Assembly (NCBI GenBank): GCA_963676835.2
Contig: CAXXFF010000002.1
Location: forward strand, 1,184,001 to 1,248,000
Reading direction: 5' to 3'
DNA: 64,000 nucleotides
Source of the DNA: Marispirochaeta sp.
GTDB taxonomy: Bacteria; Spirochaetota; Spirochaetia; JC444; Marispirochaetaceae
Under the pieces are notes generated by a model. It saw only the letters and a program-made list of their open reading frames with translations. It was not told where the DNA came from and searched no databases. Shown here piece by piece: positions 44,762 through 64,000 of this stretch (position 1 is the stretch's first letter; each line of letters opens with the position of its first letter). The translations under genes were made by a program, and so were the position numbers.

Positions 44762-44941
44762 ATGACCAAGTCTGTGACTGTTAAAAAACTCCACGAAAAA
44801 TCAAAGCACAGGGATCGTGATTTCTGGTTGTCAAAAGATCCAGTAGAGCGGTTAAATGCCGTCGAATTCCTCAGGAAGCAGTTTTATGCTGAATATCCCG
44901 AAAGACTTCAGAGAGTTTATACAATTACTAAACTCAAATAA
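44762..44941 (+). CDS. Small partner of nucleotidyltransferase (putative antitoxin)
   Basis: DRDFW.SKDPVERL.AVE.LR pattern; overlaps next gene. Confidence 0.6.
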   Translation: MTKSVTVKKLHEKSKHRDRDFWLSKDPVERLNAVEFLRKQFYAEYPERLQRVYTITKLK

Positions 44942-45329: not shown

Positions 45330-45401
45330 ACTGGCCTCGGATTCTGTTCCGGCTGTGATAGAAACATTGCCGGAGCTTTCACGGGAGTGTATATTTTTCC
45401 C

Positions 45402-46770: not shown

Positions 46771-49641
46771 ATGAACTCAAAAACCTTGTCTCTTTTCATT
46801 CTTATGGCGTGTACCGCCTTTTCTGCCTTTTCTGATACTTCCGATCCTCTTCTACGGCTGAATACGGAGATGCATACAGCGCCTATCAGGGCTATCGACA
46901 CAGATGCTGAATACCGCTTTGTTCTCACCGCAGGAGACGATAGAGTTGCACGCCTGTGGGATGCTGCTTCCGGCCGTCTTCTGAAGATTCTACGACCTTT
47001 TATTGGAGAAGGTAATGATGGACGGCTTTATTCCTGCGCCTTGTCTCCCGATGGGACTGAGGCTGTCGTGGGAGGATGGACCGGCCCTAGCGGGGATAAA
47101 TCCCTCTATTTTTTCAATACCGCTTCGGGTTCTCTAACCCATAGAATTGACGGCTTTAAAGATGTCATCAACTGTCTGAAATACTCTGATAACGGACGCT
47201 ATCTGGCTGCTGGTTTGGGTGGATCTAATGGCGTTTCTGTTATCTCTTTGCGGAACCACTCTGTTTACAAGCAGCTGGATGGATACAGCGCTCAGGTAAA
47301 GGGGTTATCGTTTTTCAGTGATGGGCGTCTGGCAGTTGTCTCCTATGATGGAGGAGTTCGTCTATACGACCGGCAGTTCGGGCTGGTGAAAAAGGTTCAG
47401 CTTGATAAAGAAAGCAGCCCCCGGGGTGTTGCGGTTTCTCCGGATGACAGCCGGATTGCCATTGCCTACTATAACAGCAGCAAGGTGGAAGTATACGACG
47501 GCATGAGTCTGAGACTTCTTTACACTGCAGACAGTGATGGAATAGATGAAAATGACGGCATGGTTAATGTTGCCTGGTCTTCTGACGGGCGCTATCTCTA
47601 TGCTGGCGGGCGCTACTCCAAATCCTTCGACGGAAAATGGTGGAGGGTTGTGCGCCGATGGGATAATCAGGGCCGTGGCATCTATGAAGATTTTCCCGGC
47701 AGCGGAAACACCATATGGGGACTGGTTTCCCTGAATAATGGGAACCTGCTGGTTGCAGGACACCGGCCCGACTGGGCACGTATAAATAACGCCGGCGAAC
47801 AGAGCCTTTACCGGGAGGGCATGATCCTCTCATTCCGACCGAAAAGCTTTGACAAGGATATGCTGTTAAACCCGGATGCCAGTAAAGTTACCTTTAAGCC
47901 AATGTCTGTCGATCCCATGACATTTTCCATTTCCGAACTCAGTCTGACGGAAGGCAGCTTTGAGGGGAATGCTTTCCGCTCCCAGGTGGGCGGAATAACG
48001 GTGACGGACTGGGATAACGGTGAAAATCCCCGCATAAACGGAACCCTTGTAGAAGGTTTCTCAAAATCTGAATTATGCCGAAGTGTCTCGGTTTCCCCCG
48101 ATGGAGATACGGTGATTCTCGGAACAGGCTGGTACTTGAGGGCCTATAATGCGGAAGCAGAATTGCTCTGGAAGATTCCTTCACCCGGTGAAAACTGGGC
48201 GGTAAACTGCTCTGCCGATGGAAAAACCGTGGTTGTTGGCCTTGGTGACGGGACTCTCCGCTGGTACAGACTTTCCGACGGCAAAGAGCTCTTAAATCTC
48301 TTTGTTCATTCTGACTGCAAACGCTGGGTCCTCTGGACACCCTCGGGTTACTATGCCTGTTCTCCTTCCGGAGAGGACCTGATCGGATGGCATATAAACC
48401 ATGGCCGGGACAGATCTGCTGATTTCTTCAGTGCATCCCGTTTTTCAGAGCGTTTCTACCGTCCGGATGTTGTTGCCCTTATGCTGGAAACTCTTGATGA
48501 GGACCAGGCCATAACCAGGGCTAACCGCCAGCGGAATATCCGGACAACCAACGCGAGCATTGCATCCATACTTCCTCCGGTTCTTGCTATACTTTCTCCC
48601 TCCGAAGGAGCAACTCACAGTTCTTCAACTATTCAGCTGCGCTATTCCGTACGAACTCCAAATAATGATCCTGTTCAGGAGGTGAGGGCAATGGTGAACG
48701 GCCGCCCGGTGGAAACTTCCCGGGGATTGAAGCTTGTCGCCTCCGGTTCCAGCGGAACTGAACAGTCTATAAATATTTCTCTTATGCCGGGAGAAAACTA
48801 CATCTCCCTCATGGCAAAGAATTCAACCTCATGGAGTGATCCTGCCACTGTTATGGTGAAGTACCAGGAACGGCAGCAATCATTTGTGGCAAAGCCGAAA
48901 CTCTATATTCTGGCAGTGGGGGTTTCGGATTACGCCAATCCTGATTACCGTCTTAATTATGCCGCCAAGGATGCCCGGGATTTTGCTGCAACCATGAAGG
49001 CCCAGGAGGGAGGGATTTATGAGGATGTTGAAATAAGGCTCCTCACCGACAAGGATGCAACCCAGGATAACGTTTTTGACGGTCTGGACTGGATACGGGG
49101 CCAGGCTACGGCTCGGGATGTTGCCATGATTTTTGTGGCGGGCCACGGGATTAATGATAACTCAGGCCGCCTCTATTACCTGACTCACGAGGCGGATGTG
49201 GACCGGCTGCGCCGGACCAGTGTTGCCGCCGATGAGTTTACCCAGACTATTCAATCCATTCCCGGCAAGGTTCTCTACTTTATGGACACCTGCCACTCCG
49301 GCGGGGTGAACATAGCCTCCCGCAGAGGGATCAATAGTGTAGATATGACGGGAATTATCAACGAGCTCTCTTCCGCCGAGAGCGGAGCGGTGGTTTTTGC
49401 CTCCTCTTCCGGAAAGCAGTACTCCCTGGAGGACGCAAGCTGGGGTAACGGTGCCTTTACCAAGGCCCTTATCGAGGGGCTCAAGGGTGGTGCGGACTAC
49501 ACCGGAAGCGGTAAAATAACTATCAATATGCTGGATCTGTATATTTCCGAACGGGTAAAGGAACTTACCCGGGGGCAGCAGACGCCGACCACTGCCAAAC
49601 CTGACACAGTGCCGGATTATCCGGTGGCGGTTAACGAATAG
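46771..49641 (+). CDS. Exported WD40 beta-propeller + Ig-like + caspase-like (C14) protease
   Basis: Signal peptide from ATG 46771; WD repeats; LAVGVSDY..L.YAAKDA; catalytic AGHG and DTCHSG. Confidence 0.9.
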   Translation: MNSKTLSLFILMACTAFSAFSDTSDPLLRLNTEMHTAPIRAIDTDAEYRFVLTAGDDRVARLWDAASGRLLKILRPFIGEGNDGRLYSCALSPDGTEAVVGGWTGPSGDKSLYFFNTASGSLTHRIDGFKDVINCLKYSDNGRYLAAGLGGSNGVSVISLRNHSVYKQLDGYSAQVKGLSFFSDGRLAVVSYDGGVRLYDRQFGLVKKVQLDKESSPRGVAVSPDDSRIAIAYYNSSKVEVYDGMSLRLLYTADSDGIDENDGMVNVAWSSDGRYLYAGGRYSKSFDGKWWRVVRRWDNQGRGIYEDFPGSGNTIWGLVSLNNGNLLVAGHRPDWARINNAGEQSLYREGMILSFRPKSFDKDMLLNPDASKVTFKPMSVDPMTFSISELSLTEGSFEGNAFRSQVGGITVTDWDNGENPRINGTLVEGFSKSELCRSVSVSPDGDTVILGTGWYLRAYNAEAELLWKIPSPGENWAVNCSADGKTVVVGLGDGTLRWYRLSDGKELLNLFVHSDCKRWVLWTPSGYYACSPSGEDLIGWHINHGRDRSADFFSASRFSERFYRPDVVALMLETLDEDQAITRANRQRNIRTTNASIASILPPVLAILSPSEGATHSSSTIQLRYSVRTPNNDPVQEVRAMVNGRPVETSRGLKLVASGSSGTEQSINISLMPGENYISLMAKNSTSWSDPATVMVKYQERQQSFVAKPKLYILAVGVSDYANPDYRLNYAAKDARDFAATMKAQEGGIYEDVEIRLLTDKDATQDNVFDGLDWIRGQATARDVAMIFVAGHGINDNSGRLYYLTHEADVDRLRRTSVAADEFTQTIQSIPGKVLYFMDTCHSGGVNIASRRGINSVDMTGIINELSSAESGAVVFASSSGKQYSLEDASWGNGAFTKALIEGLKGGADYTGSGKITINMLDLYISERVKELTRGQQTPTTAKPDTVPDYPVAVNE

Positions 49642-49675
49642 ATTTTAGAGGATTTTTTGTTTAGAAGGTGATGAC

Positions 49676-51211
49676 ATGCGAATTAAAAGTATTAGTGTAA
49701 GTATTCTTGTTCTGTTTGTTTCAGTACAGCTCTTTTCCCTGCCCCGCTGGGCGCGGGAATACGGGGCGGTAACCCCCTACAATACGGAGGAAAACGTTAC
49801 CGGATTCGGAACCTCCGAGTACGGTGATGACATCCCCATGGAGGCGGCAAAGCTCCGGGCCGCAGACGACCTGATCCGCAAGGTGAAGGTGGAGATAAAG
49901 AGTAATATAACCCTCACTGCCAATGATACTTCCGGCCGCGGATCTTCCGGGATGGATCTGGTGACCACCAGTACCAGTGTACTTCAGCTGGAAGGTATCG
50001 AATACGAGACGGAACGGGACGGCAGCACCTGGTATGCCCTTGCCCATATAAGCAGGGATTCCATTGCCCGCACATACAAGCAGAAGGCGAAGGAGACTGT
50101 AACGGATCTTGAGGCAGGTCTTTCCCAGTGTGATTCCGCTTTTAACGCCGGAAAAAACAGCGACGCCTATGACCTGGCAGTCAATCTTCTGCCCTTGTTT
50201 GACCGGCTTAAGGATGAAGCGGGCATCTACCGCTTTGCAGCGGCCGCATCCCTGCCTGCAGAAGTTTACGGACGCCGTATCAGCAACGACGGCAAGGCAG
50301 CCTATGAACTGGCACAGCTGAAAAGCCGCATCCGGGACCTTTCCGGTTCCGATGCCGCTGATCCGGCAGATGCCGTGCGGCGGATTGCCGCCATGTTCGC
50401 CGAACAGGGAATTTCGGCCTCGGACTTTACCGTCGCTCCTTTCCTCTTTCAGAATACCGACTTTTCCAGCCAGTTCGGCCAGTACATGGGCCAGCGCCTG
50501 CGGAGCGAACTGCTGAAGCGGCTGCCGCCGGTACGGGGCAAAGCTGCAGTTGCTGTACAGGGCCGCTACCTGGTGCGGGAGGGCAAGGTAGAGCTTTCTG
50601 TCTCCGCCCGCAGTGTGGACGGAAGCTCAAGCGGATCCGCCTGGGCGGAGTTTCCCGAAGTCAAACTGCCGGGAGATCTGTCGGTGGAACCCGGCAACTA
50701 CGCGGAAGCCATTCAGGACATGCTGCAGCTTGCCGACGGGGCCCTTGTTGACGGCGGCTTGAGTATCGAGGCCTGGACGAACCGCGGACGGGATGCGGAG
50801 AGCCTGGTTTTCGGCGACGGGGAGGAGCTTGAGCTCTATTTCCGGGTGAATCAGCCTGCCTTTATTCAGATTACCTATGCTCTTGCTACTGGAGAAAAGG
50901 TGCTGCTGGATGAGAGCTACTATATCGGCGATGACAAGGTAAACCGGGTGGTTAAATACCCTTATGCCTTTGAGGTATGTGCTCCCTATGGAGTTGAACG
51001 GATGATTATAAGTGCCTTCAGCAAGGAACCGCCGAAACCGAATGTAATAATCCGGCTTATTGACGGTGAGGAGTACGAGGTTTTTACCAGTGCAGCTGCT
51101 GCTGTCATGCAGACCCGGGGAGTTCACCGTGTCAGGGAAAAGGATGACGACGGCATGAAGACCGGAGAAATGATCCTGACCATGACCACCGTGCCGAAGC
51201 TGGCCGATTAA
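49676..51211 (+). CDS. Exported LPP20-like + DUF4384-like protein
   Basis: Signal peptide; P.W..GFG..A...A...L LPP20 pattern; C-terminal GEELELYFRVNQPAF...PYGVE. Confidence 0.65.
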   Translation: MRIKSISVSILVLFVSVQLFSLPRWAREYGAVTPYNTEENVTGFGTSEYGDDIPMEAAKLRAADDLIRKVKVEIKSNITLTANDTSGRGSSGMDLVTTSTSVLQLEGIEYETERDGSTWYALAHISRDSIARTYKQKAKETVTDLEAGLSQCDSAFNAGKNSDAYDLAVNLLPLFDRLKDEAGIYRFAAAASLPAEVYGRRISNDGKAAYELAQLKSRIRDLSGSDAADPADAVRRIAAMFAEQGISASDFTVAPFLFQNTDFSSQFGQYMGQRLRSELLKRLPPVRGKAAVAVQGRYLVREGKVELSVSARSVDGSSSGSAWAEFPEVKLPGDLSVEPGNYAEAIQDMLQLADGALVDGGLSIEAWTNRGRDAESLVFGDGEELELYFRVNQPAFIQITYALATGEKVLLDESYYIGDDKVNRVVKYPYAFEVCAPYGVERMIISAFSKEPPKPNVIIRLIDGEEYEVFTSAAAAVMQTRGVHRVREKDDDGMKTGEMILTMTTVPKLAD

Positions 51212-51233
51212 TAAAGGTTCCGGATAGTTTCTC

Positions 51234-52505
51234 ATGTTCAAGCTGGATGGTCTTGGAAACATACGCAAGGTCCGTTGGACCGGTCTGCGTCCGGGGGTGG
51301 TGATCCTTTCGGGGGTCTCCATCAACGATCATCCCATCCCCGAGCTGACGGGCTTTCCGGTGCTTACCGAATCTTTAATTTCTGATCTCTCCTCCCGTTA
51401 CCAGTTTCTTGCCGGCCGGGAGGTTGTTGTTGCCGAGGCGGTCTATAACTATTCACCCTTTGAGTTTGCCGATCAGCTCCGGCATTCAGAAAAACAGAGA
51501 AACAGCTTCAACCGTCTGCGCCGGGATTTTGAAGAGACGAAAAAGATGGTCCTTCTCAATATGGGCCTGGACCTTCAGACGGATGTTCCCGTAATCGGGT
51601 CTGACCATGTTGACCGGGAGTACATGGTGAAGGATACCTACAACTCCTTTTCCTATCTTTATGGGCTTGGAGAGGACCTGGATGCGATTCCCTCCTTTTT
51701 TCACCGCATGGACTTGAGCCTTTCCCTGGCCGACCTGGTTACCAACCGGCTGCAGGAGAAATTCAATGTCCCCGATGACAGCGAGGTGGTGCTGCATCTG
51801 GTGGTTGATTTTTCAAGAAGCATGGACTCCATGGGCAAGCTCGATCTGGTGGTACAGACGGTTAATGCTTTTTACAGCTTTTACTCTGAGCTTCTTGCCA
51901 ATACCACCATAAAACTCTACACCTTTTCCGATGAGTGCCGGCCGGCCCGGTATCCGCTGCAGGAGGCAGGAGTCCGCCGGGGAAACACCGCCTACGGCTC
52001 TTTTATGAAAAAGGTTCTGCACCTTAAGGAAAAGGAAAAACGCAACAAGATAATCCTCTTTACCGACGGAGTGCCCACGGACCGCAGTGAAGCACTGAAG
52101 ATGGCGGAGCTGATAAAGAAGAACTGCCTGGACTATACCCAGATCATCTTCGACATTAAAGAGGAGAGGCGCACCGAGGTTGTCTATGCTGACGGTATGG
52201 TTGTGGACGCCGTTGACAATATGGTGGAAGAGCTGTCGGCGGGTATGTCGGAACGGGTCCTCTCCGACGAGGATCTGGACGCAAAAATGAAAGGGATCTT
52301 TGATGACTTTACCGAAGTAGCTGAAAGCTGCGGCGGTAATCAGATCATCCTTAAAATAAATGAACTGCTCAATCTGGTAACGGTGGAATGTTATGACCGC
52401 TATCTCGGTCTGTTAAGCCTCGCCACGAGAGCAGAAACTGTCCAGGTTGAAGAGACCCGGACTGATAAGCCGCAGGTAAAAAAATGGAGCCCCCCGCGGG
52501 TGTAA
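51234..52505 (+). CDS. Cytoplasmic VWA-domain protein
   Basis: MIDAS VVDFSRSM, T, LFTDG; no signal peptide. Confidence 0.75.
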   Translation: MFKLDGLGNIRKVRWTGLRPGVVILSGVSINDHPIPELTGFPVLTESLISDLSSRYQFLAGREVVVAEAVYNYSPFEFADQLRHSEKQRNSFNRLRRDFEETKKMVLLNMGLDLQTDVPVIGSDHVDREYMVKDTYNSFSYLYGLGEDLDAIPSFFHRMDLSLSLADLVTNRLQEKFNVPDDSEVVLHLVVDFSRSMDSMGKLDLVVQTVNAFYSFYSELLANTTIKLYTFSDECRPARYPLQEAGVRRGNTAYGSFMKKVLHLKEKEKRNKIILFTDGVPTDRSEALKMAELIKKNCLDYTQIIFDIKEERRTEVVYADGMVVDAVDNMVEELSAGMSERVLSDEDLDAKMKGIFDDFTEVAESCGGNQIILKINELLNLVTVECYDRYLGLLSLATRAETVQVEETRTDKPQVKKWSPPRV

Positions 52506-52526
52506 AAAAACAGCAGGAGAAAAAAC

Positions 52527-53735
52527 ATGAATAAGCTGTTCACCATTGTGTTGTCCTTCGTAATATTCTTTTCTTTATCCTTAAGCATGTCCGCCCAGGA
52601 CTGTGTCAGCTTTGTGGAGGTTCAGGAGAAGACGCAGTTTGTGCTGGTTGTAGACCGCAGCGGCAGTATGGCCGGCGATCCCCTTCGGGATGCGAAGCAG
52701 GCGGTAATAAACTTTATTAACAGTATGCAGCCCGGAGATTCGGCGGCCCTGATTACCTTTGAAGATCAGGTGCATGTGAATCATAACTTTTCCTCCGACC
52801 GGGCAAGCCTGGTGCAGGCTGTACGGAATATTGAGACCGGCGGCAGGACCCGTTTTTACGATGCCGTGGCAGCTGCCGCCCGTATGCTGAAAGGGAAAAG
52901 CGGCCGTACGGCGATTCTTTTTCTTACCGATGGTAACGACAACGAAAGCAGTTTTTCCCTGAATAATATACGGCAGATGAATATCGGTGAACAGAATGTC
53001 GTTTACGGCATTGGGCTGGGGAATATCGACCATAATGGCATAAGCGCCCTGAGTACCGCCACCGGCGGACAGTACCGGGCAGCCCGGGGATCGGGTGAAC
53101 TCAGTTCTTTGTATGCTGACCTGCAGAAACTCTATTACACCGAATATCGGGATACCCGGAACAGCAGCGGAGGGTACACGGTTACCTCTCTTCCCGGCGG
53201 GAAAAGTGTCTACTTTGACGGAACCCTGGCCGGTACAACACCGCTGAATATGGACGGGATCAGTCCCGGCGAACATGTGGTGCAGGTGGAGTTTGAAAAC
53301 GGCCTGTGGGAATGCCGCAGTCAGTTAAAAGCGGGAACCAAGGGTTATATTACCGCCCGGTCTGCCGACCTTCCTGGTATTTTTTACATTGAATCATCTC
53401 CCCGGGGTGCGGCGGTTTTCATTGACGATACCTACGTGGGGCTCACTTCCATGATACCTTCACCTGTGGTGAATGGTTCCCGGGATCTTTCCGGACAGCT
53501 TCAGGTTAAGGATCTTCCCGAAGGTAAGCATACGGTAAAAATTATAGCCGCCCCGGATCTTGAACTCTCCGCAGCCCAGGAGATGGTGTTTGATTTCGAA
53601 ATGCGCAAGGCAAGCCGTTATGTGATTGTTAACGTGCTGGGAGGAAAGGCCCTGTTTGCCAACGGGGAACGGAAGCAGCGAAATATTGGCGATATGATTG
53701 AGAATGCCTTCAGCGACCCTATGTTTAATGACTAG
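52527..53735 (+). CDS. Exported VWA + 2x PEGA protein
   Basis: Signal peptide; VVDRSGSM, GRTRFYDA, FLTDG; VTSLPGG..GTTPL and IESSPRGAAVFIDD. Confidence 0.85.
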   Translation: MNKLFTIVLSFVIFFSLSLSMSAQDCVSFVEVQEKTQFVLVVDRSGSMAGDPLRDAKQAVINFINSMQPGDSAALITFEDQVHVNHNFSSDRASLVQAVRNIETGGRTRFYDAVAAAARMLKGKSGRTAILFLTDGNDNESSFSLNNIRQMNIGEQNVVYGIGLGNIDHNGISALSTATGGQYRAARGSGELSSLYADLQKLYYTEYRDTRNSSGGYTVTSLPGGKSVYFDGTLAGTTPLNMDGISPGEHVVQVEFENGLWECRSQLKAGTKGYITARSADLPGIFYIESSPRGAAVFIDDTYVGLTSMIPSPVVNGSRDLSGQLQVKDLPEGKHTVKIIAAPDLELSAAQEMVFDFEMRKASRYVIVNVLGGKALFANGERKQRNIGDMIENAFSDPMFND

Positions 53736-53781
53736 TCCAAAAATTAGCTTAATGACTGATCGGATTGGAAGAGGTAATGTC

Positions 53782-55461
53782 ATGACACGAATAAAGATAG
53801 TCGTACTGCTGCTGATGCTTGTTCCGGCAGCACTTACCGCCCAGCAGGCCCAGGGGCTGGACCCGGTCCCCGGGGCACTGAATATCTCCCTGCCCCAGGC
53901 GAATCCCCGGGGCATTGTCTCCGCAGCCGGAGCTGCTCCCGGAGACGGTGAGACTGCACAGGCCCTGCCTGCAAAGGTTGACCTGCAGCAGTTTCTGCCG
54001 CCGGTGAAAAACCAGGGGCAGATCGGCAGTTGCGCCGCCTGGGCCAGCGTCTATTACGCCAAGACAATACAGGAGAACCAGGAGCGCCGCTGGGGTGCGG
54101 ATAATGCGGACCACCAGTACAGCCCTCTTTTTACCTACAACCAGATTACCAAAGGGGTAAATGAGGGCACCGCTATTCAGGATCATATGGTGCTGATGGA
54201 AAAGCTCGGGGCTGCCCCGTTCAGCAGTTTTCCCTACGCGGATAACCTCAATGTCCAGCCCGATGCTAAGGTACTGAAGGCGGCGGAAAAGTATCCGGCT
54301 TCGTCTCACAAGAACCTGGATACCTACGATTACACAACAAAAACCTGGTCGGTAAAGCTTGAGTCCGTTAAAGCTACCCTTGCCGAGGGGCTGCCTGTTG
54401 TGGGGGGATTTCAGGTCTATGAAAACCTGCACAGCTACCGGGGCGGTATTTACAACAAGGTAGCCGGGGCTGCTTCCGGCGGTCATGCGATGTGCATTAT
54501 CGGCTATGACGATTCTAAAAATGCTTTGCACCTGGTTAATTCCTGGGGAACATCCTGGGGAGACCAGGGCTTTCTCTGGATGGACTACGATCTGTTTGAA
54601 GAGCTCTGCACCTACGGCTGCGTGGTTATGTATGACACGGTTATTCCCGTACCTGATAGCATTCAGGCTCCGGTGAATCTTGAAGGCAGCAGGGGGGTAT
54701 ATAAAAACCGCATAGAGCTCTCCTGGACTGCCGTGGATGGGGCGGAACTCTATATCGTCTACCGGGTGGATAACGCCGAGGGAGTTCTGAAAGAGGTCGG
54801 CCGGACCGATGAACCCGCCTGGATCGAAGAGAATCTTCCCCCCGGGGTGACCTATGTCTATGCCGTAAAGGCTGCGAAGAAAAAGGGCTCCGGTCTGCTT
54901 GAGAGCGATTTCAGTGAGATAGCCGAAGGATGGACAGTGGAAGAGAAGTTTCCTCCGGGAATCCCCTCTAATCTTACCTTCGGATTTTTTATGGGAAACC
55001 CCGTTCTGGTTTGGCTGCCCGTGGAAGAGGCTGAAGGCTACAACGTCTACCGCTGGTCCGATGCTGAAGAGGCCTTTATGCTGTTAGGCAGTTCAAAGGA
55101 TTCGGCCTTTATGGATTCCGGGTATAAAAATCTTAATGAAGCAGGAATTATCTACTATATCGTGCAGGCCTATAACGCCAACGGCGAGGGCTACCCCACG
55201 GAGAGCCTTGCGGTGCTGAAGGAGATAGCCGAAGAGAAGCCCGAGGAAGAGATTATCGAAACCGATACCCTGAAGGATGATATTCCCGCAGAAAAGAAAG
55301 AGGCCTTCGACGGTGATTTCTACCGCACCGATTACTTTGATTACGAGTACACCGTGAAACAGTTCCGGGAATACTACGAGAAGGAGATGCAGGCCTTCCG
55401 GGATTTTCAGAAGAACGAAGCGGACAGCTTTGAGGCCTGGAAGCGGCAGCACAGCCGGTAG
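53782..55461 (+). CDS. Exported papain-like (C1A) cysteine protease with FN3 repeats
   Basis: Signal peptide; LPAKVDL mature start; NQGQIGSCAAW, GHAM, VNSWG catalytic motifs; two FN3-like repeats. Confidence 0.92.
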   Translation: MTRIKIVVLLLMLVPAALTAQQAQGLDPVPGALNISLPQANPRGIVSAAGAAPGDGETAQALPAKVDLQQFLPPVKNQGQIGSCAAWASVYYAKTIQENQERRWGADNADHQYSPLFTYNQITKGVNEGTAIQDHMVLMEKLGAAPFSSFPYADNLNVQPDAKVLKAAEKYPASSHKNLDTYDYTTKTWSVKLESVKATLAEGLPVVGGFQVYENLHSYRGGIYNKVAGAASGGHAMCIIGYDDSKNALHLVNSWGTSWGDQGFLWMDYDLFEELCTYGCVVMYDTVIPVPDSIQAPVNLEGSRGVYKNRIELSWTAVDGAELYIVYRVDNAEGVLKEVGRTDEPAWIEENLPPGVTYVYAVKAAKKKGSGLLESDFSEIAEGWTVEEKFPPGIPSNLTFGFFMGNPVLVWLPVEEAEGYNVYRWSDAEEAFMLLGSSKDSAFMDSGYKNLNEAGIIYYIVQAYNANGEGYPTESLAVLKEIAEEKPEEEIIETDTLKDDIPAEKKEAFDGDFYRTDYFDYEYTVKQFREYYEKEMQAFRDFQKNEADSFEAWKRQHSR

Positions 55462-55506
55462 TAAAAAACGTTTAATAGAATCAGCTGAAAACTAACGGAG
55501 TACATC

Positions 55507-56178
55507 ATGAAAAAACTGATTACAATTTTACTGACATTCACCACTCTCATATCCCTGTCTGCTCTCCCTGAGCAGGCAGATATACCTGACTGGTATCTTA
55601 ATCCCCCGGAACCCGAAAATAAAATCGTCGGACTTGGCGCGCATAAAGCGGATAACCCCGGCTCCTCGGTTATTCTCTCCCTGGTTCACAGCCTTGGGCA
55701 GATATCAACTATTGCTGCGGCAAAATATGAGAATGCAGAAACCACCTACGATAATGAAGAAGGGCTTCCGGATGTCAAGTTTGAAGAGGCTGTTCTCAAA
55801 GGTAAGGCTATGGTCAGTATAGGGACGTGCATTATACATGCGGTTTACACTGATTATCTCCAGACTACAAGCAATGAGGAAGGTGAACAGACTATCTCTT
55901 TTGCAGAGTTAATTGAGAAAGTCCTTCTGCCCTATAAAGGAGGATATGTCTGCCTGACCAGTACGGTGCAGGACAGTGCGGTGGATGATGATGCAGATCA
56001 TAAACAGCACAGTAATATTGAGCCCGATTTTTCTCCCCGGGATTTTTACTATCAGCTTATGGCCATTCTCGAAGAGGCCGGCTGTGAGATTGAGAAGTAT
56101 TTTGCCGAGGATGGTACGGTGTATACCAAGGCTGTAATAAGCTGGGATGCGGTGAAGGCTCTGGCAGAAGAGAGTTGA
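55507..56178 (+). CDS. Exported LPP20-like protein
   Basis: Signal peptide; PDWYLNPP...VGLG; C-terminal DGTVY. Confidence 0.6.
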   Translation: MKKLITILLTFTTLISLSALPEQADIPDWYLNPPEPENKIVGLGAHKADNPGSSVILSLVHSLGQISTIAAAKYENAETTYDNEEGLPDVKFEEAVLKGKAMVSIGTCIIHAVYTDYLQTTSNEEGEQTISFAELIEKVLLPYKGGYVCLTSTVQDSAVDDDADHKQHSNIEPDFSPRDFYYQLMAILEEAGCEIEKYFAEDGTVYTKAVISWDAVKALAEES

Positions 56179-56287
56179 GGAATTATCGAATAGTCTATGC
56201 TCTGAGTGTAAAAAGTAAAAGTGTGAATACAGTTAATGGCTTAACAACTCGAACACTAAAAAAGTTGTAAAACTGGTGAGGATTTAA

Positions 56288-59200
56288 ATGAGAAAAATAA
56301 CACTATCTGTACTTATGTTCCTGGTCACAACTTTATTTTTTAGTTGCGCTTCTACAACCTCATTGTTGCGAATTGATTTAAACGGTCCCGATATGGAGTT
56401 TGTATCGGAGAAAGAGAATTCTCCTGAAATTTCAACAGAAGTAAACAGCTATTTTGAGGGAAAAAGCGTCTATAGTTTTAACAACCAGTACAGAGCTGTC
56501 TGGAAAAATGAATATTGCTTTATAGAGAACTTCGATACAGGTGAAAAATCCCGAATTTTTACTGTAGGTAGAGGCGTGACAGATATTGTCTTTGCCCCGG
56601 ATAACCATAGCTGTGCAGTCCTTTGTTATGGGGGAGATTTACTTGTCGTAGATATAGAAAGTCTTAAGATTATATCGGAATTAGAAGTTGATACTGAAAC
56701 ATTTAGCCCTGAAAAAGTTGTTTACTCAAACAATGGTAATGTTCTCTGTTTAAGGTACACTAATACGTTCTCTTTCTGGAATACAGAGACCGGGGAGTAT
56801 TTAAGTACCATACAGCTTAAGAGCGGACCTTATACTTGTGCTATAGATGATATTTCCATGGAAATTCTGGTAACAAAGCCGTATACCAAAGCTGGTTCTC
56901 ACCGTTTTGACGTATATAGTATTCTGACAGGTGCTTCTGTCAGAACATTTAATATAAATCTCGGTCGTATTTATCCATATGTGGAAAGCTCTATTGTTTT
57001 CTCCGGTGATGGCAAAAAAATAATCAGAACAGGTTCTACTACAGACGGATTTAAACAACGCACACGGGCACTGACGTGCTACGACGCCAATAACGGAGAA
57101 AAGATATGGGAACATGGAGGATCCGAAGAGGCTCCATTGAATATTGATGTTGTCCCGGACTCTTTTCCGAGTGAGTTTAAACTGCAATGTAGTGGCAAAG
57201 AAACTGTTTCTGTAGTTTCATCTTCTTCATATTTTTATAAGCTGTCCGGCAATGACAGTGCTGTTCCGGGAGAAGAGCAGACTCGTCTTTGGGAGATATC
57301 TATTGCAGATGGTTCTATAATTGACTCTTTTCCCGTCAACAGCCCGGGTTCAAAAAGTTCAAACAGAGAAATAGTGTCCGACCAGAACAAAATAATTGAT
57401 GCATCAAATGCGGGAAGAATGTTTTCGAGCGAACCGGGCACACTCAAGTTTTCTCAGAATGGGGTTTATTATACCTGGGATATTGAAAAAGGCAGTTTGA
57501 AGTCTGTTCTTGATTCGAAAGACCTTGCAGATGGAGTTACCTGTTATGGTGTAAACAGTATCCTGAGCCTGGGTGTTATCGGCGTAGCGAATCAGGCATA
57601 TCAGTATGAACTCTGGAATTTTGATCTTGCCAAGAGGATTGCCGCAATAAACCTTGAAGACTATGCCGATGCCGGGTTTTGTGATCCTGAACATATAACC
57701 AGTGTACACGTAAGCCCTACGGGAAAGTCTATTCTGTTCTTTATCAAAAACTATAAAGACCCTGACTATGTTTTAGTATGGGACATAAACAGACAGCAGA
57801 AAGCAGTTTTTCTCCAGGGAGAAAACTGGCATCACGTCGGATATCGAAGTGAAGAAATTATCGGATGTTATGACTCATATTCTGACAGTGCTCCTGAATA
57901 TTTTAATCTTGTATCAGGCCAAAAATCCGCAGCCTTTAATTTAAAGAAAAGTAATGAAACAATTCATGTGAAGAATGAAGGCGATCGTTTAGTATTTTAC
58001 TATTTCAATGATAAACATGATGAGGCAGAAATTGATTCTTTTTCTATACAGCCTTTGAGAAAATTAATGGGAGAAAGACCTTTCAGTATTCTTGATTACC
58101 ATCCTGAGAATCATGCTGTCAGTGTTATTCAGGATAAGACTCTTGCAATGTACAGTTTATCTGAGCAGGCACTTATCTGGAAAAAAGAGATTCCTGGTTT
58201 GCTGAAAGATGATCATCTGTCGGTGTATTACTTAAAAACCGAGTCCGGACTGGCAAGAGTCGATCTCAGTACAGGTCATATTTATGACTCTTCTGATCTC
58301 GGCACTATGCATGAATATATTATCAAGGGTACACCAATTGGTATTAAGCTATGGGAAAACAAGTATGCAAGTTGGGAAATACCTGAGAATGAACTGATAA
58401 AAATTGTTACCACCACCAACGGCGAGTGGTTTGTCATTACCCCCGACGGCCGCTTCGATTGCTCTGCCGGTGGAAAAGATTTTATCAAATTCTACAAAGG
58501 TGAAGAAGAATACGCATCGGATCAGCTCTGGGATTCTCTGTATACTCCCGGGATTCTGGCACTTGCTGTCTCAGGAGAATTAAAACCCCGGGAAGAAGAG
58601 TCAATCATCTCCACTCTGGAACAGGCTCCTGAAGTAACTATCATTTCCCCGGAATCAAAAACGACGGAGGCGAACCAGGCTGTTGTAAAGGTACAGGTTG
58701 AAGACAGCGGCAACGGTATCGGCGATGTCTATTTATATGTAAACGGAAAAACCTACAACCGCTCCACCCGGGGGCTGAAGATTGCACGCACCGGGAGCAC
58801 CTACGAGTTTTCCATACAGCTGATTCCCGGAGAAAACAGAATAAAGGCGGTTGCAGAAAACGGCAACGGAACCATTGAAGGCTGGAGTGATGAGGTTGTT
58901 ATTACCTGTACTCCTCCCGAGCAGATACTGCCTTCACTGCATATACTCTCCATCGGTGTAAGCGATTATCAGGACCAGGGAATCCGATTGAATGCTCCCG
59001 ATGATGACTCCCGAATGATAGCGAAAGTGTTTTCCGATCTTGGTGAAAATCTATATGGGGATGTTACACAGACGGTTCTGGTAGACCGGGATGCAAGGCT
59101 GAACGGGATACGGGCAGGCTTTAAATCAATGCTGGAAACTGCAAACCCCGAGGATACGGTAATAGTATTCTTCGCCGGTCACGGATTTACCGAAAATCAA

Positions 59201-59689
59201 CGCTTTTATTACCTGCCCCAGGATGCAGATATAACTGACCTCCCTGGTACGGCCTTATCAATTGATGAAATAAGCCGGCTGACCCAGGAGATCAGTGCTT
59301 CCAAAATAGTTCTTCTCTTCGACACCTGTCAGAGCGGGGATGCCGCCATTACTCTTAGTCAGATTGCCATGTCCCGCGGTTTTGATGAACGAAAAGCCAT
59401 TGCCGATCTGGCAAAGCAGAGCGGTATTATGGTATTTGCCGCTACGAGCCCCGGCATGAATGCCTATGAGATTTCCGAACTGGGGAACGGCGTTTTTACC
59501 TACAGCATTATCAAGGCTATTAAAGAAAAGAAGGATGCAATTTCCCGGGATTCCTATGTGACAATAAACAAGCTCATGTCCGAGGTTGATTTTCTTACCC
59601 GGGAAATCAGTTACGAGTACCTGGGATTCTCCCAGAATCCGATCCGGTATAACTTCGGCCAGGATTTCAGTATTGGTAGATTGAAGTAA
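56288..59689 (+). CDS. Lipoprotein: divergent beta-propeller + Ig-like + caspase-like (C14) protease
   Basis: FFSC lipobox; degenerate WD repeats; TPDGRFD linker; LSIGVSDY; catalytic AGHG and DTCQSG. Confidence 0.88.
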   Translation: MRKITLSVLMFLVTTLFFSCASTTSLLRIDLNGPDMEFVSEKENSPEISTEVNSYFEGKSVYSFNNQYRAVWKNEYCFIENFDTGEKSRIFTVGRGVTDIVFAPDNHSCAVLCYGGDLLVVDIESLKIISELEVDTETFSPEKVVYSNNGNVLCLRYTNTFSFWNTETGEYLSTIQLKSGPYTCAIDDISMEILVTKPYTKAGSHRFDVYSILTGASVRTFNINLGRIYPYVESSIVFSGDGKKIIRTGSTTDGFKQRTRALTCYDANNGEKIWEHGGSEEAPLNIDVVPDSFPSEFKLQCSGKETVSVVSSSSYFYKLSGNDSAVPGEEQTRLWEISIADGSIIDSFPVNSPGSKSSNREIVSDQNKIIDASNAGRMFSSEPGTLKFSQNGVYYTWDIEKGSLKSVLDSKDLADGVTCYGVNSILSLGVIGVANQAYQYELWNFDLAKRIAAINLEDYADAGFCDPEHITSVHVSPTGKSILFFIKNYKDPDYVLVWDINRQQKAVFLQGENWHHVGYRSEEIIGCYDSYSDSAPEYFNLVSGQKSAAFNLKKSNETIHVKNEGDRLVFYYFNDKHDEAEIDSFSIQPLRKLMGERPFSILDYHPENHAVSVIQDKTLAMYSLSEQALIWKKEIPGLLKDDHLSVYYLKTESGLARVDLSTGHIYDSSDLGTMHEYIIKGTPIGIKLWENKYASWEIPENELIKIVTTTNGEWFVITPDGRFDCSAGGKDFIKFYKGEEEYASDQLWDSLYTPGILALAVSGELKPREEESIISTLEQAPEVTIISPESKTTEANQAVVKVQVEDSGNGIGDVYLYVNGKTYNRSTRGLKIARTGSTYEFSIQLIPGENRIKAVAENGNGTIEGWSDEVVITCTPPEQILPSLHILSIGVSDYQDQGIRLNAPDDDSRMIAKVFSDLGENLYGDVTQTVLVDRDARLNGIRAGFKSMLETANPEDTVIVFFAGHGFTENQRFYYLPQDADITDLPGTALSIDEISRLTQEISASKIVLLFDTCQSGDAAITLSQIAMSRGFDERKAIADLAKQSGIMVFAATSPGMNAYEISELGNGVFTYSIIKAIKEKKDAISRDSYVTINKLMSEVDFLTREISYEYLGFSQNPIRYNFGQDFSIGRLK

Positions 59690-59725
59690 TCTTATCTGGG
59701 TGAAGCGAAGAGAGAAGATAAAAAC

Positions 59726-62035
59726 ATGTCTGAAACTAATGAACAAAACCACTACGAACTGTTATGCCGGGAAGCGGAAAATCCCGGCTTTACCGACCGG
59801 CCCTTTGAAGATTTGATAAACTTTTATGTTTCCCTTTCGAACTACGTTAAAAGAAACGGCCTTCTTGCCATGGAGGAGATTGTAGAAAAGCTTCCGATGG
59901 ATTATGCCCAGGGCTTTCTCTGGGAGGTGGTTTCCGGAGTAGATCCGGGGATCATGTTCGGCCGGGGTATGGAAAAGGCAAGGGCAGGCTCCGATGGCGA
60001 GCTCTCTCTGAAAATTGCCTTTCATCTCTTTGCCGCCCTGCTGCTCCAGAACGGAGTGGGCGGCGGGAGCCTGAACGAAAGGCTGCAGGCTTTCTGCAGT
60101 CAAATTACCCCGCCGGTCTCTGAAGCGGATTTTAAGAAAATCGAAGACTACATACGGGCGCAGCACGGGACTCTTATGATCCCCGTGGAGCATACCGCTG
60201 CGGAGCTTCTTCGCGGACATACCAAGGAGTACGACCGGGCCCGGGAACTTCTCTCTTCCGTGGAAAAAGAGAAGCTTGGCAGCGACAGCCTCTACAACCT
60301 CGCCCTGATCAATTATCTTGATAACGATGACTGGAGCATTGCCATCGGGCTGGAATATGCCATTGCCGCAGCAGAGAAGGGGCACCGGCAGGCGGTCTAT
60401 ACCGCGGGACATCAGCTTCTGACCGGGGTTCCGGGGTTCTCGGAAAATATGAACGGCCTGGTAACTCCCGCCGATGAGAAGACCGCGATTATGGGCTACA
60501 CCCCCTATCCCCGTGATGTGGTAACAGAAAAGGATATTCCCCGGGGAATTGAACTGCTCGAAAAGGCCGCCGGGCAGGGCAGTGTTAATGCCTGCATGAC
60601 CCTGGCAGAACATTATGGGGCTGCTGGTAATGCTGCACAGACATTTGCCTGGCTCCAGAAGGGCGTGGACAACGGGTCCGAGAAGGCCGCGGAGATTATG
60701 GGCGACTCCTTCAGCGGCCGTCCGCTCCGGCATCCTTTTACCTGTCTTGTGATGGACCCGGGCAGCCTTACGGATGACAACTACAAAGGGGCAATCGGCT
60801 TTTATTACAAGGCCTACAGAAACCTTCCCGATCTTATCCCGAGAATACTGGAAACGATTTTTCTCCACCTTAACCCCGGTGCATATCCGAAGCTCCTTTC
60901 CGAACTCTACAAGTATCTCAATGATCCCTTCGACTTCGATACTGCCCTGGTGCGGTTTTTCAATGATGAGGAGCATGAGAAGATTGCGGCGGAGGATATC
61001 CTCGGGGTGGCATACTTTGGAGGTATCGTTCGGCCGGATCTGGAAAAGGCCTTTTTCTATCTGAACCGGGCCTACTCCGAAGGCCGGAAAACCGGGTACA
61101 CCGTCTACCTGCTTGCACTCTTGTACCTGAAAAAGGATGAAGGCTTTACAAGCTACGATCCCGTAAAAGCACATTCCCTCTTTATGGAGGCGGCGGACCT
61201 TGGCCATCTCCCTTCCGCGCAGCAGGCAGGATTCAGCTGTTTCTCCGGAATGCGGGCATATCTGCCGGCAAAGTTCGCGGAAGATCCGGGGGCGGCTGAA
61301 TCGGAAGCGATGTTTGCATCCCCGGTGACTGATGCGGAACTCAACCTGAAGGATCTGGAGAAGGCGGAAAAATATCTGAAACAGGCTGCAGATAAAGGGC
61401 ATCTCTTTTCCTGCCTGCGTCTGGCGGACCTTTATGCTTCGCAGAACAACCCGGCAGAGGACAATGTCTACCGCAGGAAGGCCTCCTGGTTCGGGGACAG
61501 CAATTCATCCCTTGCGGTTTCTCTGGATTACGCCCGTAGGGGCTTTGCGGAACATTATAACGACATTGTTCTCTACTGCACCATTGCCGCCCTGCAGCAG
61601 GATTCCGGCGCCTATTACAGCTTTGTTTCCATGCTGGAAGAGGAAGAGACGGTGACCCTAGCCGATGCTGATCTCAACAGGTTTCTCGAAATGAGTGCCG
61701 GGATAAAATGCAAGTACTGCGCTCTTATGCTGGGCCTGCGGCTCTATGCAGGCGTCGGGTGTGAGCCGGATGAGTCCGCTGCCATGGAGTATCTTGTCCG
61801 GGCTGAAGATTTCTCGGCATATGAAAATCGAAACGGATATTTCAACCAGCTGGAGATCGACAGCCTAAGGGCCCTGGCGGAGATATACGGAAATCCGCAA
61901 TCATCCTTTTATGATGCGGCAAAGCCGGAACCCCTCCGGCAGAAGGCTGATTCAATGGAAGCGGAAATGAAGCAGTCTCAGGCCTTTATTGATGATCTGC
62001 TTATGCCCCGGCCGAATACGGACAGTGAAGATTAA
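59726..62035 (+). CDS. Sel1-like repeat protein with N-terminal MotA-cytoplasmic-like segment
   Basis: Repeats AAEKGH, KAAGQG, AADLGH, AADKGH; N-terminal KRNGLLAMEE...VVSGVDP; no signal peptide or TM. Confidence 0.75.
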   Translation: MSETNEQNHYELLCREAENPGFTDRPFEDLINFYVSLSNYVKRNGLLAMEEIVEKLPMDYAQGFLWEVVSGVDPGIMFGRGMEKARAGSDGELSLKIAFHLFAALLLQNGVGGGSLNERLQAFCSQITPPVSEADFKKIEDYIRAQHGTLMIPVEHTAAELLRGHTKEYDRARELLSSVEKEKLGSDSLYNLALINYLDNDDWSIAIGLEYAIAAAEKGHRQAVYTAGHQLLTGVPGFSENMNGLVTPADEKTAIMGYTPYPRDVVTEKDIPRGIELLEKAAGQGSVNACMTLAEHYGAAGNAAQTFAWLQKGVDNGSEKAAEIMGDSFSGRPLRHPFTCLVMDPGSLTDDNYKGAIGFYYKAYRNLPDLIPRILETIFLHLNPGAYPKLLSELYKYLNDPFDFDTALVRFFNDEEHEKIAAEDILGVAYFGGIVRPDLEKAFFYLNRAYSEGRKTGYTVYLLALLYLKKDEGFTSYDPVKAHSLFMEAADLGHLPSAQQAGFSCFSGMRAYLPAKFAEDPGAAESEAMFASPVTDAELNLKDLEKAEKYLKQAADKGHLFSCLRLADLYASQNNPAEDNVYRRKASWFGDSNSSLAVSLDYARRGFAEHYNDIVLYCTIAALQQDSGAYYSFVSMLEEEETVTLADADLNRFLEMSAGIKCKYCALMLGLRLYAGVGCEPDESAAMEYLVRAEDFSAYENRNGYFNQLEIDSLRALAEIYGNPQSSFYDAAKPEPLRQKADSMEAEMKQSQAFIDDLLMPRPNTDSED

Positions 62036-62045
62036 GGAATAAGAT

Positions 62046-63803
62046 ATGAAACGAACATTTTTTGCAGCACTGTTTTTAACTATTCTAATGGCCGTAACGG
62101 CTTTTGCACAGAACAAGACGGCCCTGCTGATCGCTAACGGGGACTATCAAAACTTCTCCTCCCTGGCAAACCCGGTGCCCGAGGCCCGGCAGCTCAGAAG
62201 CGCTCTGCAGCGTCTTGGATTTCAGGTAACCCTCCTGACGGATGCTGATAAAGAGGAGATGATTATCGGCCTGCGGAACTTTCAGCGTTCCGTTAAAAGC
62301 CGGGGCGGTGTCGCCTTTTTTCACTACGGCGGCCATGCGGTGCAGGTGGGGGGTAAGAACTACCTTATTCCTGCAAATGCAGATATTCCCGATGAGGATT
62401 ACGTAAGCCTCCGCGCCATGGATGCGGAGGAGATTATGGTCAGCCTTGAGCATTCCGGAAGCGACAGCAATATCGTTATTCTCGACTCCTGCCGCAACAA
62501 TCCGCTGCCAGCAGGTTCGGGCAGAAGCGCGTCCCGCGGTCTGGCGGTTGTCGGGAAAGAGCCGCCCAATACGGTGATCGTGTACTCTGCAAAATCGGGA
62601 CAGGTTGCCCGGGACGGTGTATTTACCCCGGCTCTTACCAGGGCTCTCACCTCTCCGGGATTAAGCATTCAGGAGATCCTGATGCAGACCCGCCAGAAGG
62701 TGTATGAACAGACCAAGGGTGCCCAGATTCCCGGTGAGTACAACCAGCTTTTTGAACCGGTATACCTCGCCGGCCGCGGTAGTTCAGGCGGCGGAAACAA
62801 TATAAGCTTCGGCGCGGTAACTGTGGAACCCGGTTCGCTCACCATAAATGTAGTTGAAGCGGGCACCCTGGAAATCAACGGACAGTCCGTGCAGATACCC
62901 TCCGGAGGCAGCATTCCGGTGAATGGACTTGATCCGGGGAGTTACATTCTTTCTATGCAGTATGGAAATGGACTTCGGGAAACTAAGACTGTTGAGGTTG
63001 AGAGCGGGATCAGTAAGAGTATTGCCTTCAGTTATGTGGTTAGAACGTCTACGGTTAGCCGCATGTCTTTAGACGATAGCTTTGTGCTGGTAAAAGCTGG
63101 AAGTTTCACCATGGGGTCACCATCCAATGAACCTGACAGGAAGGATAATGAAGCACAACATCAGGTAACCCTGACCCGGGATTTTTACATTAGTAAATAC
63201 GAAGTAACTCAGGGATTGTGGAAAGAGGTAATGGGAAATAATCCTTCCGAAGTAAGTACAGGTATCGATGTTAATTATCCAGTTAATGAAATCAGCTGGA
63301 TTGAAGCGGTGGATTTTTGCAATAAACTCAGTCGCCGACAAGGCCTCAATCCCGTTTATAGTGGTTCGGGAGATAGTATCCGCTGTGACTTCAATGCCAA
63401 CGGCTACCGGCTGCCCACGGAAGCAGAGTGGGAGTTCGCGGCGCGTGGTGCTCAGTCGTTAGAGAGCTATCAGATTTATGCGGGCTCGAATAGTTTGGGT
63501 AATGTTGGCTGGTTTTACAACAACAGTGGCGGTAAAAACCATGCGGTAGGGCAGAAGTCACTTAATCCCCTGGGGCTTTATGATATGAGTGGGAATGTAT
63601 TTGAATGGTGCTGGGACTGGTATGGCAATTACAGTGGAACGGTAATAAATCCAACGGGAGACGAATCAGGATCTTACCGAGTAACTCGTGGGGGCAGCTG
63701 GCTTCAACGCGATAGGTTCAACCGTTCGGCTTTTCGAGACTTTCGTAGTCCCTATGCGAGTGCTGATGATGTTGGCTTTCGCCTTGTTCGCACTGCAAAT
63801 TAG
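62046..63803 (+). CDS. Exported caspase-like (C14) + PEGA-like + FGE-sulfatase (CLec-fold) protein
   Basis: ALLIANGDY, L.NP, YGGHA, LDSCRNNP; FTMGS, YRLPTEAEWEFAARG, GLYDMSGNVFEW, RGGSW, GFRLV. Confidence 0.92.
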   Translation: MKRTFFAALFLTILMAVTAFAQNKTALLIANGDYQNFSSLANPVPEARQLRSALQRLGFQVTLLTDADKEEMIIGLRNFQRSVKSRGGVAFFHYGGHAVQVGGKNYLIPANADIPDEDYVSLRAMDAEEIMVSLEHSGSDSNIVILDSCRNNPLPAGSGRSASRGLAVVGKEPPNTVIVYSAKSGQVARDGVFTPALTRALTSPGLSIQEILMQTRQKVYEQTKGAQIPGEYNQLFEPVYLAGRGSSGGGNNISFGAVTVEPGSLTINVVEAGTLEINGQSVQIPSGGSIPVNGLDPGSYILSMQYGNGLRETKTVEVESGISKSIAFSYVVRTSTVSRMSLDDSFVLVKAGSFTMGSPSNEPDRKDNEAQHQVTLTRDFYISKYEVTQGLWKEVMGNNPSEVSTGIDVNYPVNEISWIEAVDFCNKLSRRQGLNPVYSGSGDSIRCDFNANGYRLPTEAEWEFAARGAQSLESYQIYAGSNSLGNVGWFYNNSGGKNHAVGQKSLNPLGLYDMSGNVFEWCWDWYGNYSGTVINPTGDESGSYRVTRGGSWLQRDRFNRSAFRDFRSPYASADDVGFRLVRTAN

Positions 63804-63826
63804 TAACCGGATTAAAGGAATAAGCC

Positions 63827-64000
63827 ATGAAAAAATCAATAACCATTTTCCTAATGCTTCTAAGCCTCCTTTCCCTCACCGCCGAAAACCGCTACGCCCT
63901 GATTATCGGTAACAGCGAATACGCTGATTTCGGCAGTCTTCAGGAGCAGCCGGTAAACGATGCGGCTGACATCTCCGCCTCTTTAAAGCAGCTTGGCTTC
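63827..64000 (+). CDS. Exported caspase-like (C14) protein, 5' part only (cut by window end)
   Basis: Hand translation MKKSITIFLMLLSLLSLTAENRYALIIGNSEYADFGSLQEQPVNDAADISASLKQLGF; AAGGA SD; not in ORF track. Confidence 0.85.
   Translation, partial: MKKSITIFLMLLSLLSLTAENRYALIIGNSEYADFGSLQEQPVNDAADISASLKQLGF

Follow-up and report, generated by a model that had tools for sequence, protein, structure and literature searches.

What would a bacterium do with several exported caspase-like proteases encoded side by side, and what would they cut? This question is raised by a run of ten co-directional open reading frames (ORFs), here named A to J, on the forward strand of a 64,000-nucleotide stretch of a Marispirochaeta sp. 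genome (contig CAXXFF010000002.1, positions 1,184,001 to 1,248,000; referred to in its full length as the window). The run spans positions 46771–65185 with intergenic gaps of 10–109 bp, at the place where a reading of the sequence alone (the original prediction) had reported ten genes with short gaps. That prediction also had the cluster running off the end of the window, and J, which we completed from the genome sequence past 64 kb, indeed continues to window-equivalent position 65185. The locus had been read as a cascade in which binding modules trigger proteases that process the co-encoded proteins. This idea survives in part: protein B has a candidate cut site and is linked to genes coding for C14 proteases, whereas C, D, F and H have no such motif. 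We propose tentatively, with slightly less than even confidence, that the C14 proteases form an array bearing export signals, that they would be Arg-specific and activate themselves at an Arg-Gly in a linker, and that they would share a single target, B, nicked at Arg481-Gly482. The features on which this proposal bears are the following.

46771..49641, + strand: A, signal peptide, WD40 propellers, Ig domain (TSR651GL loop) and C14 protease (H792, D839, C841; linker SRR852GI)
49324..49329, + strand: Arg852-Gly853 of A, candidate self-cleavage site 11 residues past the catalytic Cys
49676..51211, + strand: B, signal peptide, Lpp20-like domain, three-helix bundle, LpoB-like domain and DUF4384 beta-sandwich; single copy; proposed dedicated substrate or switch
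51116..51121, + strand: Arg481-Gly482 of B, nearly invariant, opening a low-confidence loop that precedes the last beta-strand; candidate cut site
56288..59689, + strand: G, lipoprotein (Cys20), divergent propeller, Ig domain (STR828GL loop) and C14 protease (H965, C1014; linker MSR1030GF); GC content 0.42; absent from the same-genus genome G002
62046..63803, + strand: I, signal peptide, C14 protease (H97, C149; linker ASR164GL) and FGE/C-lectin-fold domain
63827..64000 in the window, gene end at window-equivalent 65185, + strand: J, signal peptide, C14 protease (H97, C149; linker VSR162GL) and F-like domain

Four C14 proteases with intact active sites and predicted Arg specificity

Pfam assigned A, G, I and J to the C14 family (PF00656) with 58.5, 57.5, 107.2 and 120.3 bits, respectively, for a cut-off of 21.4. 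All four retain the His-Cys dyad, both residues of which are invariant in 22 of 22 aligned C14 domains; the motifs originally quoted for the three proteases that are complete in the window are present, and the completed J (AGHG/DACRDFP) is intact as well. The 4.4-Mb source genome holds 8 Pfam C14 matches, five of them at this locus (A, G, I, J and K), and four C14s within 18 kb of a genome with 8 matches is far above chance. The fifth, K, is another C14-FGE gene located 2.5 kb past the end of the run (window-equivalent 67726-69273); it shares with I 72% identity in the C14 domain, 61% in the FGE domain and the same linker motif. Contig C3 (L109:6817-10896) codes for a further C14 protein of 1360 aa (propeller-Ig-C14-FGE), whose long linker contains two Arg-Gly motifs; it was found with a local profile and lies outside the 8 Pfam matches, so that the genome holds at least nine C14 domains.

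As originally proposed, each of the three proteases complete in the window is fused to a different binding module, which Pfam supports as WD40 plus Ig in A, a weak, divergent propeller plus Ig in G, and FGE in I. The C-terminal domain of J resembles protein F (35% identity), and C14s of the same type in other genomes bear PEGA, Lcl_C or Flg_new modules. Among solved structures, MALT1 is the closest relative of the C14 domain of I (E 2e-9); its specificity for Arg is set by Asp365, Asp462 and Glu500 (PMC4357240; here and below, statements on cited papers refer to their accessible parts). All four proteases have Asp or Glu at the positions aligned to Asp365 and Asp462, and the position of Glu500, matched by motif only, is occupied by Glu in A and G, Asp in I and Asn in J. 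The C14 pockets are predicted to be acidic, like that of the Arg-specific MALT1, and to support cleavage after Arg. PADLOC and NCBIfam returned only weak generic caspase models for the cluster, and no system was called.

Signal or lipoprotein peptides, judged by eye and with a crude hydropathy rule that 21% of the ORFs of the genome pass, were found on all four C14s, as had been claimed, and on 8 of the 10 proteins of the run, C and H being the exceptions. C passes the hydropathy rule, but the N-terminus of its family is a conserved beta-strand, and that of H has no hydrophobic stretch; for these reasons both proteins look cytoplasmic, and the notion of an extracytoplasmic cluster would apply to the eight other members. 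No transmembrane segment was predicted past the signal peptide in any of the four C14s or in B.

One Arg-Gly motif in the protease linkers and in protein B

In A, G, I, J and K, an Arg-Gly dipeptide lies 11–16 residues past the catalytic Cys. Across 40 distinct C14 linkers, 34 carry RG 4–28 residues past this Cys, compared to 8.6% expected by chance from random 25-residue windows, and 9 of the 12 long (propeller) C14s, A and G included, have RGL in a particular Ig-domain loop. The same dipeptide stands out in B, a 511-aa protein present in single copy in the genome. R481-G482 is invariant in 17 of 17 rows of the B alignment and in 31 of 31 further genome-derived C-terminal domains, from the alignment of which one near-duplicate was omitted. 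A profile search for the B family retrieved 944 clusters at 50% identity; among the best 150 of the 944 representatives, Arg is found in 150 and Gly in 148, and no column is better conserved. Past Arg-Gly come a hydrophobic position, a stretch of basic residues and a loop variable in both sequence and length. In the AlphaFold2 model of B (predicted local distance difference test score (pLDDT) of 73, from 17 sequences), Arg481 sits at the end of a short helix (473–480), within a stretch of pLDDT <50 (474–491) and ahead of the last strand (496–506).

One Arg-Gly motif thus recurs across three unrelated folds, namely the C14 linker, the Ig loop and the DUF4384 loop. Because the Arg-Gly loop of B matches the motif at the predicted self-cut site of the C14s, B is likely to be their dedicated target. 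Occurrences of [STAN]RG[LIVF] in the cluster were not counted as evidence, since this pattern was derived from these very proteins. No comparable exposed Arg-Gly motif was seen in C, D, F or H. An RG present in C (23/50) was read as structural, at the Thr loop of the metal ion-dependent adhesion site (MIDAS).

The resemblance of B to known proteins is at the level of folds only: its four domains match an Lpp20-like fold (Z 9.3 to Lpp20), a three-helix bundle, an LpoB-like fold (Z 8.5) and a macroglobulin-like sandwich, and HP1454 was the only convincing match returned by Foldseek. The Pfam LPP20 match of B (E 1e-3) is below the cut-off, and so is PF14326 (DUF4384), with a score of 17.7 for a cut-off of 27, while a short relative scores 74; in the Atlas clusters nearest to B (0.95–0.96), mostly of Bacteroidota with one of Myxococcota, 25–55% of the members have PF14326. 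The last domain aligns with macroglobulin domains of complement C5, C3 and C4 and of alpha-2-macroglobulin over ~95 residues (Z 8.1–9.3, root-mean-square deviation 1.7–2.7); it also matches RbmA (Z 8.5) and GbpA (Z 8.4), and this tie with other beta-sandwiches shows a common fold only. Within that same domain, Glu441 and Glu498 are conserved along with Arg481. The three other domains keep a constant length across phyla. B has no membrane segment after its signal peptide and no known effector fold. Its closest named homologue (79%) is from Marispirochaeta sp., and a search for the B family in plasmids and viral contigs gave no match.

B is linked to C14 genes in other genomes

In 15 of 35 B-bearing genomes, a C14 gene lies within the examined B locus (0.65 expected), the loci spanning 1.5–21.5 kb; without two same-genus genomes, the count is 13 of 33 (0.58 expected). 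At the scale of whole genomes, C14 is present in 34 of the 35, compared to 16 of 27 relatives without full-length B. B-bearing genomes hold a median of 3 C14 matches, to be set against one B. The B–C14 pair is also present in Alkalispirochaeta alkalica DSM 8900 (L037), a cultured spirochaete. G538 combines 22 C14 matches with one B in 4.3 Mb, and G574 has 13 matches, G551 and G588 11 each.

The remaining genes of the run are as follows.

51234..52505, + strand: C, VWA protein with MIDAS motif, without signal peptide (likely cytoplasmic); loosely linked to B, E and C14 genes
52527..53735, + strand: D, VWA and PEGA domains after a signal peptide; has an orthologue in G002
53782..55461, + strand: E, signal peptide, ~40-residue extension, papain-family C1A protease (C84, H235, N253) and fn3 domains; Arg43 unconserved
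55507..56178, + strand: F, LPP20-like protein predicted to be exported; 35% identity with the last domain of J; missing in G002
59726..62035, + strand: H, Sel1-repeat protein without signal peptide; absent from G002; probably a passenger

Some of these genes travel with B. In one draw of 401 genomes of the class, we counted B in 30 genomes (43 matched, 13 of which were dropped for short partial matches), C in 21, and E in 15 (close orthologues of at least 575 bits, out of 38 matches). B and C share 8 genomes (1.6 expected), B and E 9 (1.1) and C and E 4 (0.8), figures that kinship inflates. The three genes are adjacent in L093, which belongs to another family; B and C are adjacent in L029, E and B in L106, and E adjoins an LPP20 lipoprotein gene in L113 and L115. 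In L121, also from another family, C is found with a short B relative and three C14 genes. At L121:9369-15822, C, a short CsgG-DUF4384 protein with TRGL and a series of C14-FGE genes lie on one strand, providing a second form of the B–C14 pair. Among C loci, only 2 of 11 and, in metagenomes, 2 of 14 have a C14 gene nearby; among E loci, the count is 1 of 9. Hence the expectation that the members co-occur elsewhere is borne out for the shared genomes of B, C and E and for their adjacency in L093, and fails for most C and E loci, which have no C14 gene nearby. Taken together, B and the C14s are strongly tied and form the core of the cluster, with E, C, D and F as loosely attached accessories rather than demonstrated substrates.

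Papain, VWA and LPP20-like accessories

The papain-like protease of the original prediction is well founded: the catalytic residues Q78, C84, H235 and N253 of E are invariant in 29 of 29 homologues, and Pfam gives it 69 bits. Its originally stated zymogen nature is a conjecture: E has a conserved ~40-residue extension in which no Pfam prodomain was recognized. At the position before a conserved Gly of this extension, 8 of the 29 homologues have Arg, 7 have Lys, and 14 have His, Asn, Ala, Trp, Pro or Ser. Activation of the papain at Arg43 was rejected as a family trait, Arg being found in 8 of 29.

Pfam likewise supports the Sel1 protein (H) and the two VWA proteins (C and D, with MIDAS motifs) that had been announced. 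The named homologues of C are spirochaetal, and Atlas returned generic VWA clusters for it. No Pfam family matched the N-terminal parts of C and H; that of H (59726-60145) is reminiscent of the cytoplasmic part of MotA. The claim of two LPP20-like proteins needs qualification on both counts, as B qualifies by fold and falls below the Pfam cut-off, and F has no Pfam match of its own and is connected to LPP20 through proteins that match this family, with which it shares 25–31% identity.

The gene set and its recognition modules turn over within the genus

C14 is missing from three of five other genomes of the same genus; a fourth has one, and the fifth, G002, has seven. G002 retains the order A-B-C-D-E-I-J and is missing F, G and H; the ten-gene set is not a fixed unit. 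A fixed ten-gene cascade is not supported, given this loss, the papain, which has no conserved Arg, and C, D, F and H, which have no motif comparable to that of B. The G002 copy also appears to be decaying: two stops and a frameshift interrupt A, I is split, a stop lies in K and an unlinked C14 gene is cut short, while B, C, D, E, J (86% identical) and the flanking genes are intact. Confinement of the stops and frameshifts to four C14 genes with intact neighbours suggests true decay, not assembly error. Between the two copies, the catalytic domains stay similar, while divergence or exchange affects the A propeller and the FGE domain of I, a pattern that reads as recognition modules turning over on a conserved protease.

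With diversity-generating retroelements (DGRs) in mind, we looked for a second copy or template repeat of the 3′ ends of three C14-FGE genes and found none; DGR diversification of the FGE domains of I and K was rejected on this ground. The genome encodes two reverse transcriptases with a YADD motif (G000:C2:1836903-1838198 and C3:257837-259297; 432 and 487 aa), one of them within a chemotaxis gene cluster. Both are presumably of the group II intron type.

The 3′ boundary of the run is a convergent transglutaminase-like gene (window-equivalent 65182-66234, minus strand), predicted to be exported, that overlaps the stop of J by 4 bp and is kept in G002. Farther on, window-equivalent 67026-67580 (minus strand) codes for a small protein with tandem 22-residue repeats (~66 bp; self-match). 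Directly 5′ of A (44856-46544) lie a nucleotidyltransferase-like gene (GC 0.41) and a BNR-repeat lipoprotein gene, neither of which is at this place in G002. The GC content is also low in F (0.46) and G (0.42). A scan for promoters and terminators was no richer than shuffled sequences (18 vs 20.9 and 25 vs 21.1, respectively). A look-up of sequencing runs listed none of RNA, which has no bearing on whether the genes are expressed.

Relation to known caspase systems

The premise that the best-studied bacterial caspase-family systems act in the cytoplasm is incomplete: a 2012 catalogue (PMC3501461) already lists C14s with predicted signal peptides, C14-WD40 and C14-FGE fusions and operons holding as many as three C14s, and the structure of DdvA, a periplasmic caspase-fold (CHAT) sensor, has been solved (PMC11506125). 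C14-DUF4384 fusions have been counted (PMC8283722), and in the accessible part of PMC6426788 DUF4384 is mentioned only in fusions. FGE domains have been proposed to sense invaders in intracellular systems (PMC8195603). The supplements of PMC3501461 and PMC8195603 (file 13 of the latter excepted) contain no LPP20 or DUF4384, and in the literature searched, as far as accessible, no natural substrate is named for an exported bacterial C14. The B family and the shared Arg-Gly motif were not found in our literature search either, many subscription papers being outside its scope, so that an earlier description is possible.

Self-activation at a basic linker residue has precedents. MaOC1 of Microcystis self-activates by a cut after Arg219 (PMC7475262) and prefers Arg-Arg substrates (PMC8283722, PMC5756287). 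MaOC1 and MALT1 (peptidase C14B) have in common with the proteases described here the caspase fold, the His-Cys dyad and, by prediction, acidic S1 residues; they differ from the present locus by its export signals, its four C14s in one run and its separate protein B with the same Arg-Gly motif. The type II metacaspase AtMC4 keeps Lys225 of its linker in the active site until it is cut there (bioRxiv 2020.03.09.983940), and likewise has a basic linker residue after the catalytic Cys as self-cleavage site. However, AtMC4 is a cytoplasmic, Ca2+-activated plant enzyme with a long linker domain, whereas here the linker is short, with Arg 11–16 residues after Cys.

The pairing of a caspase-fold protease with a dedicated co-encoded substrate recalls Csx29 (TPR-CHAT) and Csx30 of type III-E CRISPR systems, all the more so as DUF4384 is the C-terminal domain of some Csx30, the substrates of Csx29, and is often fused to proteases (bioRxiv 2022.08.17.504292). 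Csx29 is nonetheless a cytoplasmic, RNA-triggered CHAT protease tied to a sigma factor, while the proteases here are C14s and B bears a signal peptide. In this cluster we saw neither a CRISPR nor a sigma gene, all ten genes being without a sigma-factor match. With C14 proteases and a B devoid of a transmembrane segment after the signal peptide, the locus fits neither Csx29/Csx30 nor an extracytoplasmic function (ECF) sigma/anti-sigma switch. DdvA-DdvS of Myxococcus xanthus offers a periplasmic caspase-fold domain proposed to sense and self-cleave in defence (PMC11506125), but DdvA is a transmembrane anti-sigma factor with TPR-CHAT, unlike the four C14s and B, for which no transmembrane segment is predicted past the signal peptide. 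In gasdermin systems, a dedicated caspase-like protease trims a short C-terminal peptide off the neighbouring gasdermin (bioRxiv 2021.06.07.447441), and B similarly has its candidate site 30 residues from the end; no cluster protein matched gasdermin in Pfam or PADLOC, fold searches of B and C gave other folds, and B further differs from gasdermins in being predicted to be exported. Neither is B a member of the complement/alpha-2-macroglobulin family, since at 511 aa only its last domain resembles a single macroglobulin domain, nor are the FGE genes DGR targets. The locus thus appears to resemble a caspase with its dedicated substrate without belonging to the Csx29, DdvA, DGR or complement families.

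A model for the pathway and its alternatives

We envision that the C14s and B are exported to the periplasm or the surface, where the linker Arg would sit in the active site until the enzyme is clustered or opened by a ligand that binds its propeller, FGE or LPP20 module. A cut at the linker, together with one at the Ig loop in A and G, would yield the active protease. The nick in B would then generate a 30-residue tail comprising a new N-terminus of GL followed by basic residues and the last strand of the sandwich, thereby changing the state of B, and many sensors with swappable modules would converge on one switch or substrate. In view of the turnover of the modules, our guess is that the pathway serves envelope surveillance in biological conflict.

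Several points weigh against this model. Cleavage, export and co-transcription are all predictions from sequence. A nick 30 residues from its end would free no whole domain of B, and as B has neither a membrane segment nor an effector fold, an inhibitor fits its anatomy equally well. The profile that ranked the best 150 of the 944 representatives itself contains the Arg-Gly motif. The linker RG is general to these C14s and also occurs in genomes without full-length B (L007, L008, L009 and L015), so that its match with B is not shown to co-evolve, and the Arg of B varies too little for a test of co-evolution; in L101, the RGL of other C14s is replaced by KGL in the C14 adjacent to B, B itself retaining RGL. 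Arg219 of MaOC1 may not be the position equivalent to the linker Arg. Finally, 20 of the 35 examined B loci have no C14 (several are short contigs), in four genomes of the Chlorobi class the C14s are on other contigs than B, and the relatedness of the genomes makes the p-values overstate the linkage.

B could instead be a bait-loop inhibitor or keeper, the decoy Arg481 trapping exported C14s so that one gene shields the envelope from self-activating enzymes. One B for a median of three C14 matches, a flexible loop that is basic past Arg, macroglobulin domains as the best fold matches and a cut that would release no domain all agree with such a role. We nevertheless hold it to be unlikely: the macroglobulin match is tied with the RbmA and GbpA sandwiches, C14s occur in 16 of 27 relatives without full-length B, and the constant length of the three other domains across phyla is more than a decoy needs. 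Alternatively, Arg-Gly could be an uncut docking or structural element that contacts an acidic groove, or a conserved Glu of B, in an envelope complex of B and the C14s. The conserved Glu441 and Glu498 of the same domain speak for this, but the recurrence of the motif in loops of three unrelated folds, its location in a low-confidence region of the model and its fit to the Arg preference of the pocket make the idea distinctly unlikely.

Wider and narrower readings of the locus fare less well. A full cascade, in which cross-activated C14s would go on to activate the papain and to process the VWA and LPP20 proteins in the manner of complement or clotting, gains plausibility from the linker motif common to all four C14s, which makes cross-activation plausible, from the co-occurrence and adjacencies of B, C and E, and from the Arg or Lys that precedes the conserved Gly in the extension of E in 15 of 29 homologues. 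It is highly unlikely given that this position is another residue in the other 14, that C, D, F and H have no exposed motif, that C and H have no signal peptide, that F, G and H are absent from G002, and that C14 genes are so rarely near E or C. Nor do we give much credence to an insertion hotspot in which genes for exported proteins and C14 paralogues have collected, functionally tied by little more than the protease family: three of the five other same-genus genomes have no C14, F and G are low in GC, other insertions lie just upstream, and I and K are recent paralogues, yet local accumulation explains neither the linkage of B to C14 in 13 of 33 unrelated loci nor the invariant Arg.

A bolder version of the proposed pathway makes B a protease-triggered envelope effector. 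Nicked in its Arg-Gly loop by any of several exported caspases, each responding to a ligand of its own, B would swap the loosened last strand of its macroglobulin-like sandwich into a neighbour and assemble into a coat, ring or filament; in some lineages, the papain and the VWA proteins would act as later steps. Strand exchange occurs in gingipain-processed pili. We rate this version as very unlikely; if true, gasdermin or complement activation would have an equivalent outside the cytoplasm, extending over 944 protein clusters and several phyla.

With B as the shared target of the C14s, the locus offers one named bond, Arg481-Gly482 of B, and a matching predicted self-cleavage site in each protease, and its B is part of a large partner family that conserves this Arg above all other residues. 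If the model is correct, it would describe a caspase pathway with many sensors and one target operating outside the cytoplasm, and DUF4384 would gain a role as a caspase substrate or bait.

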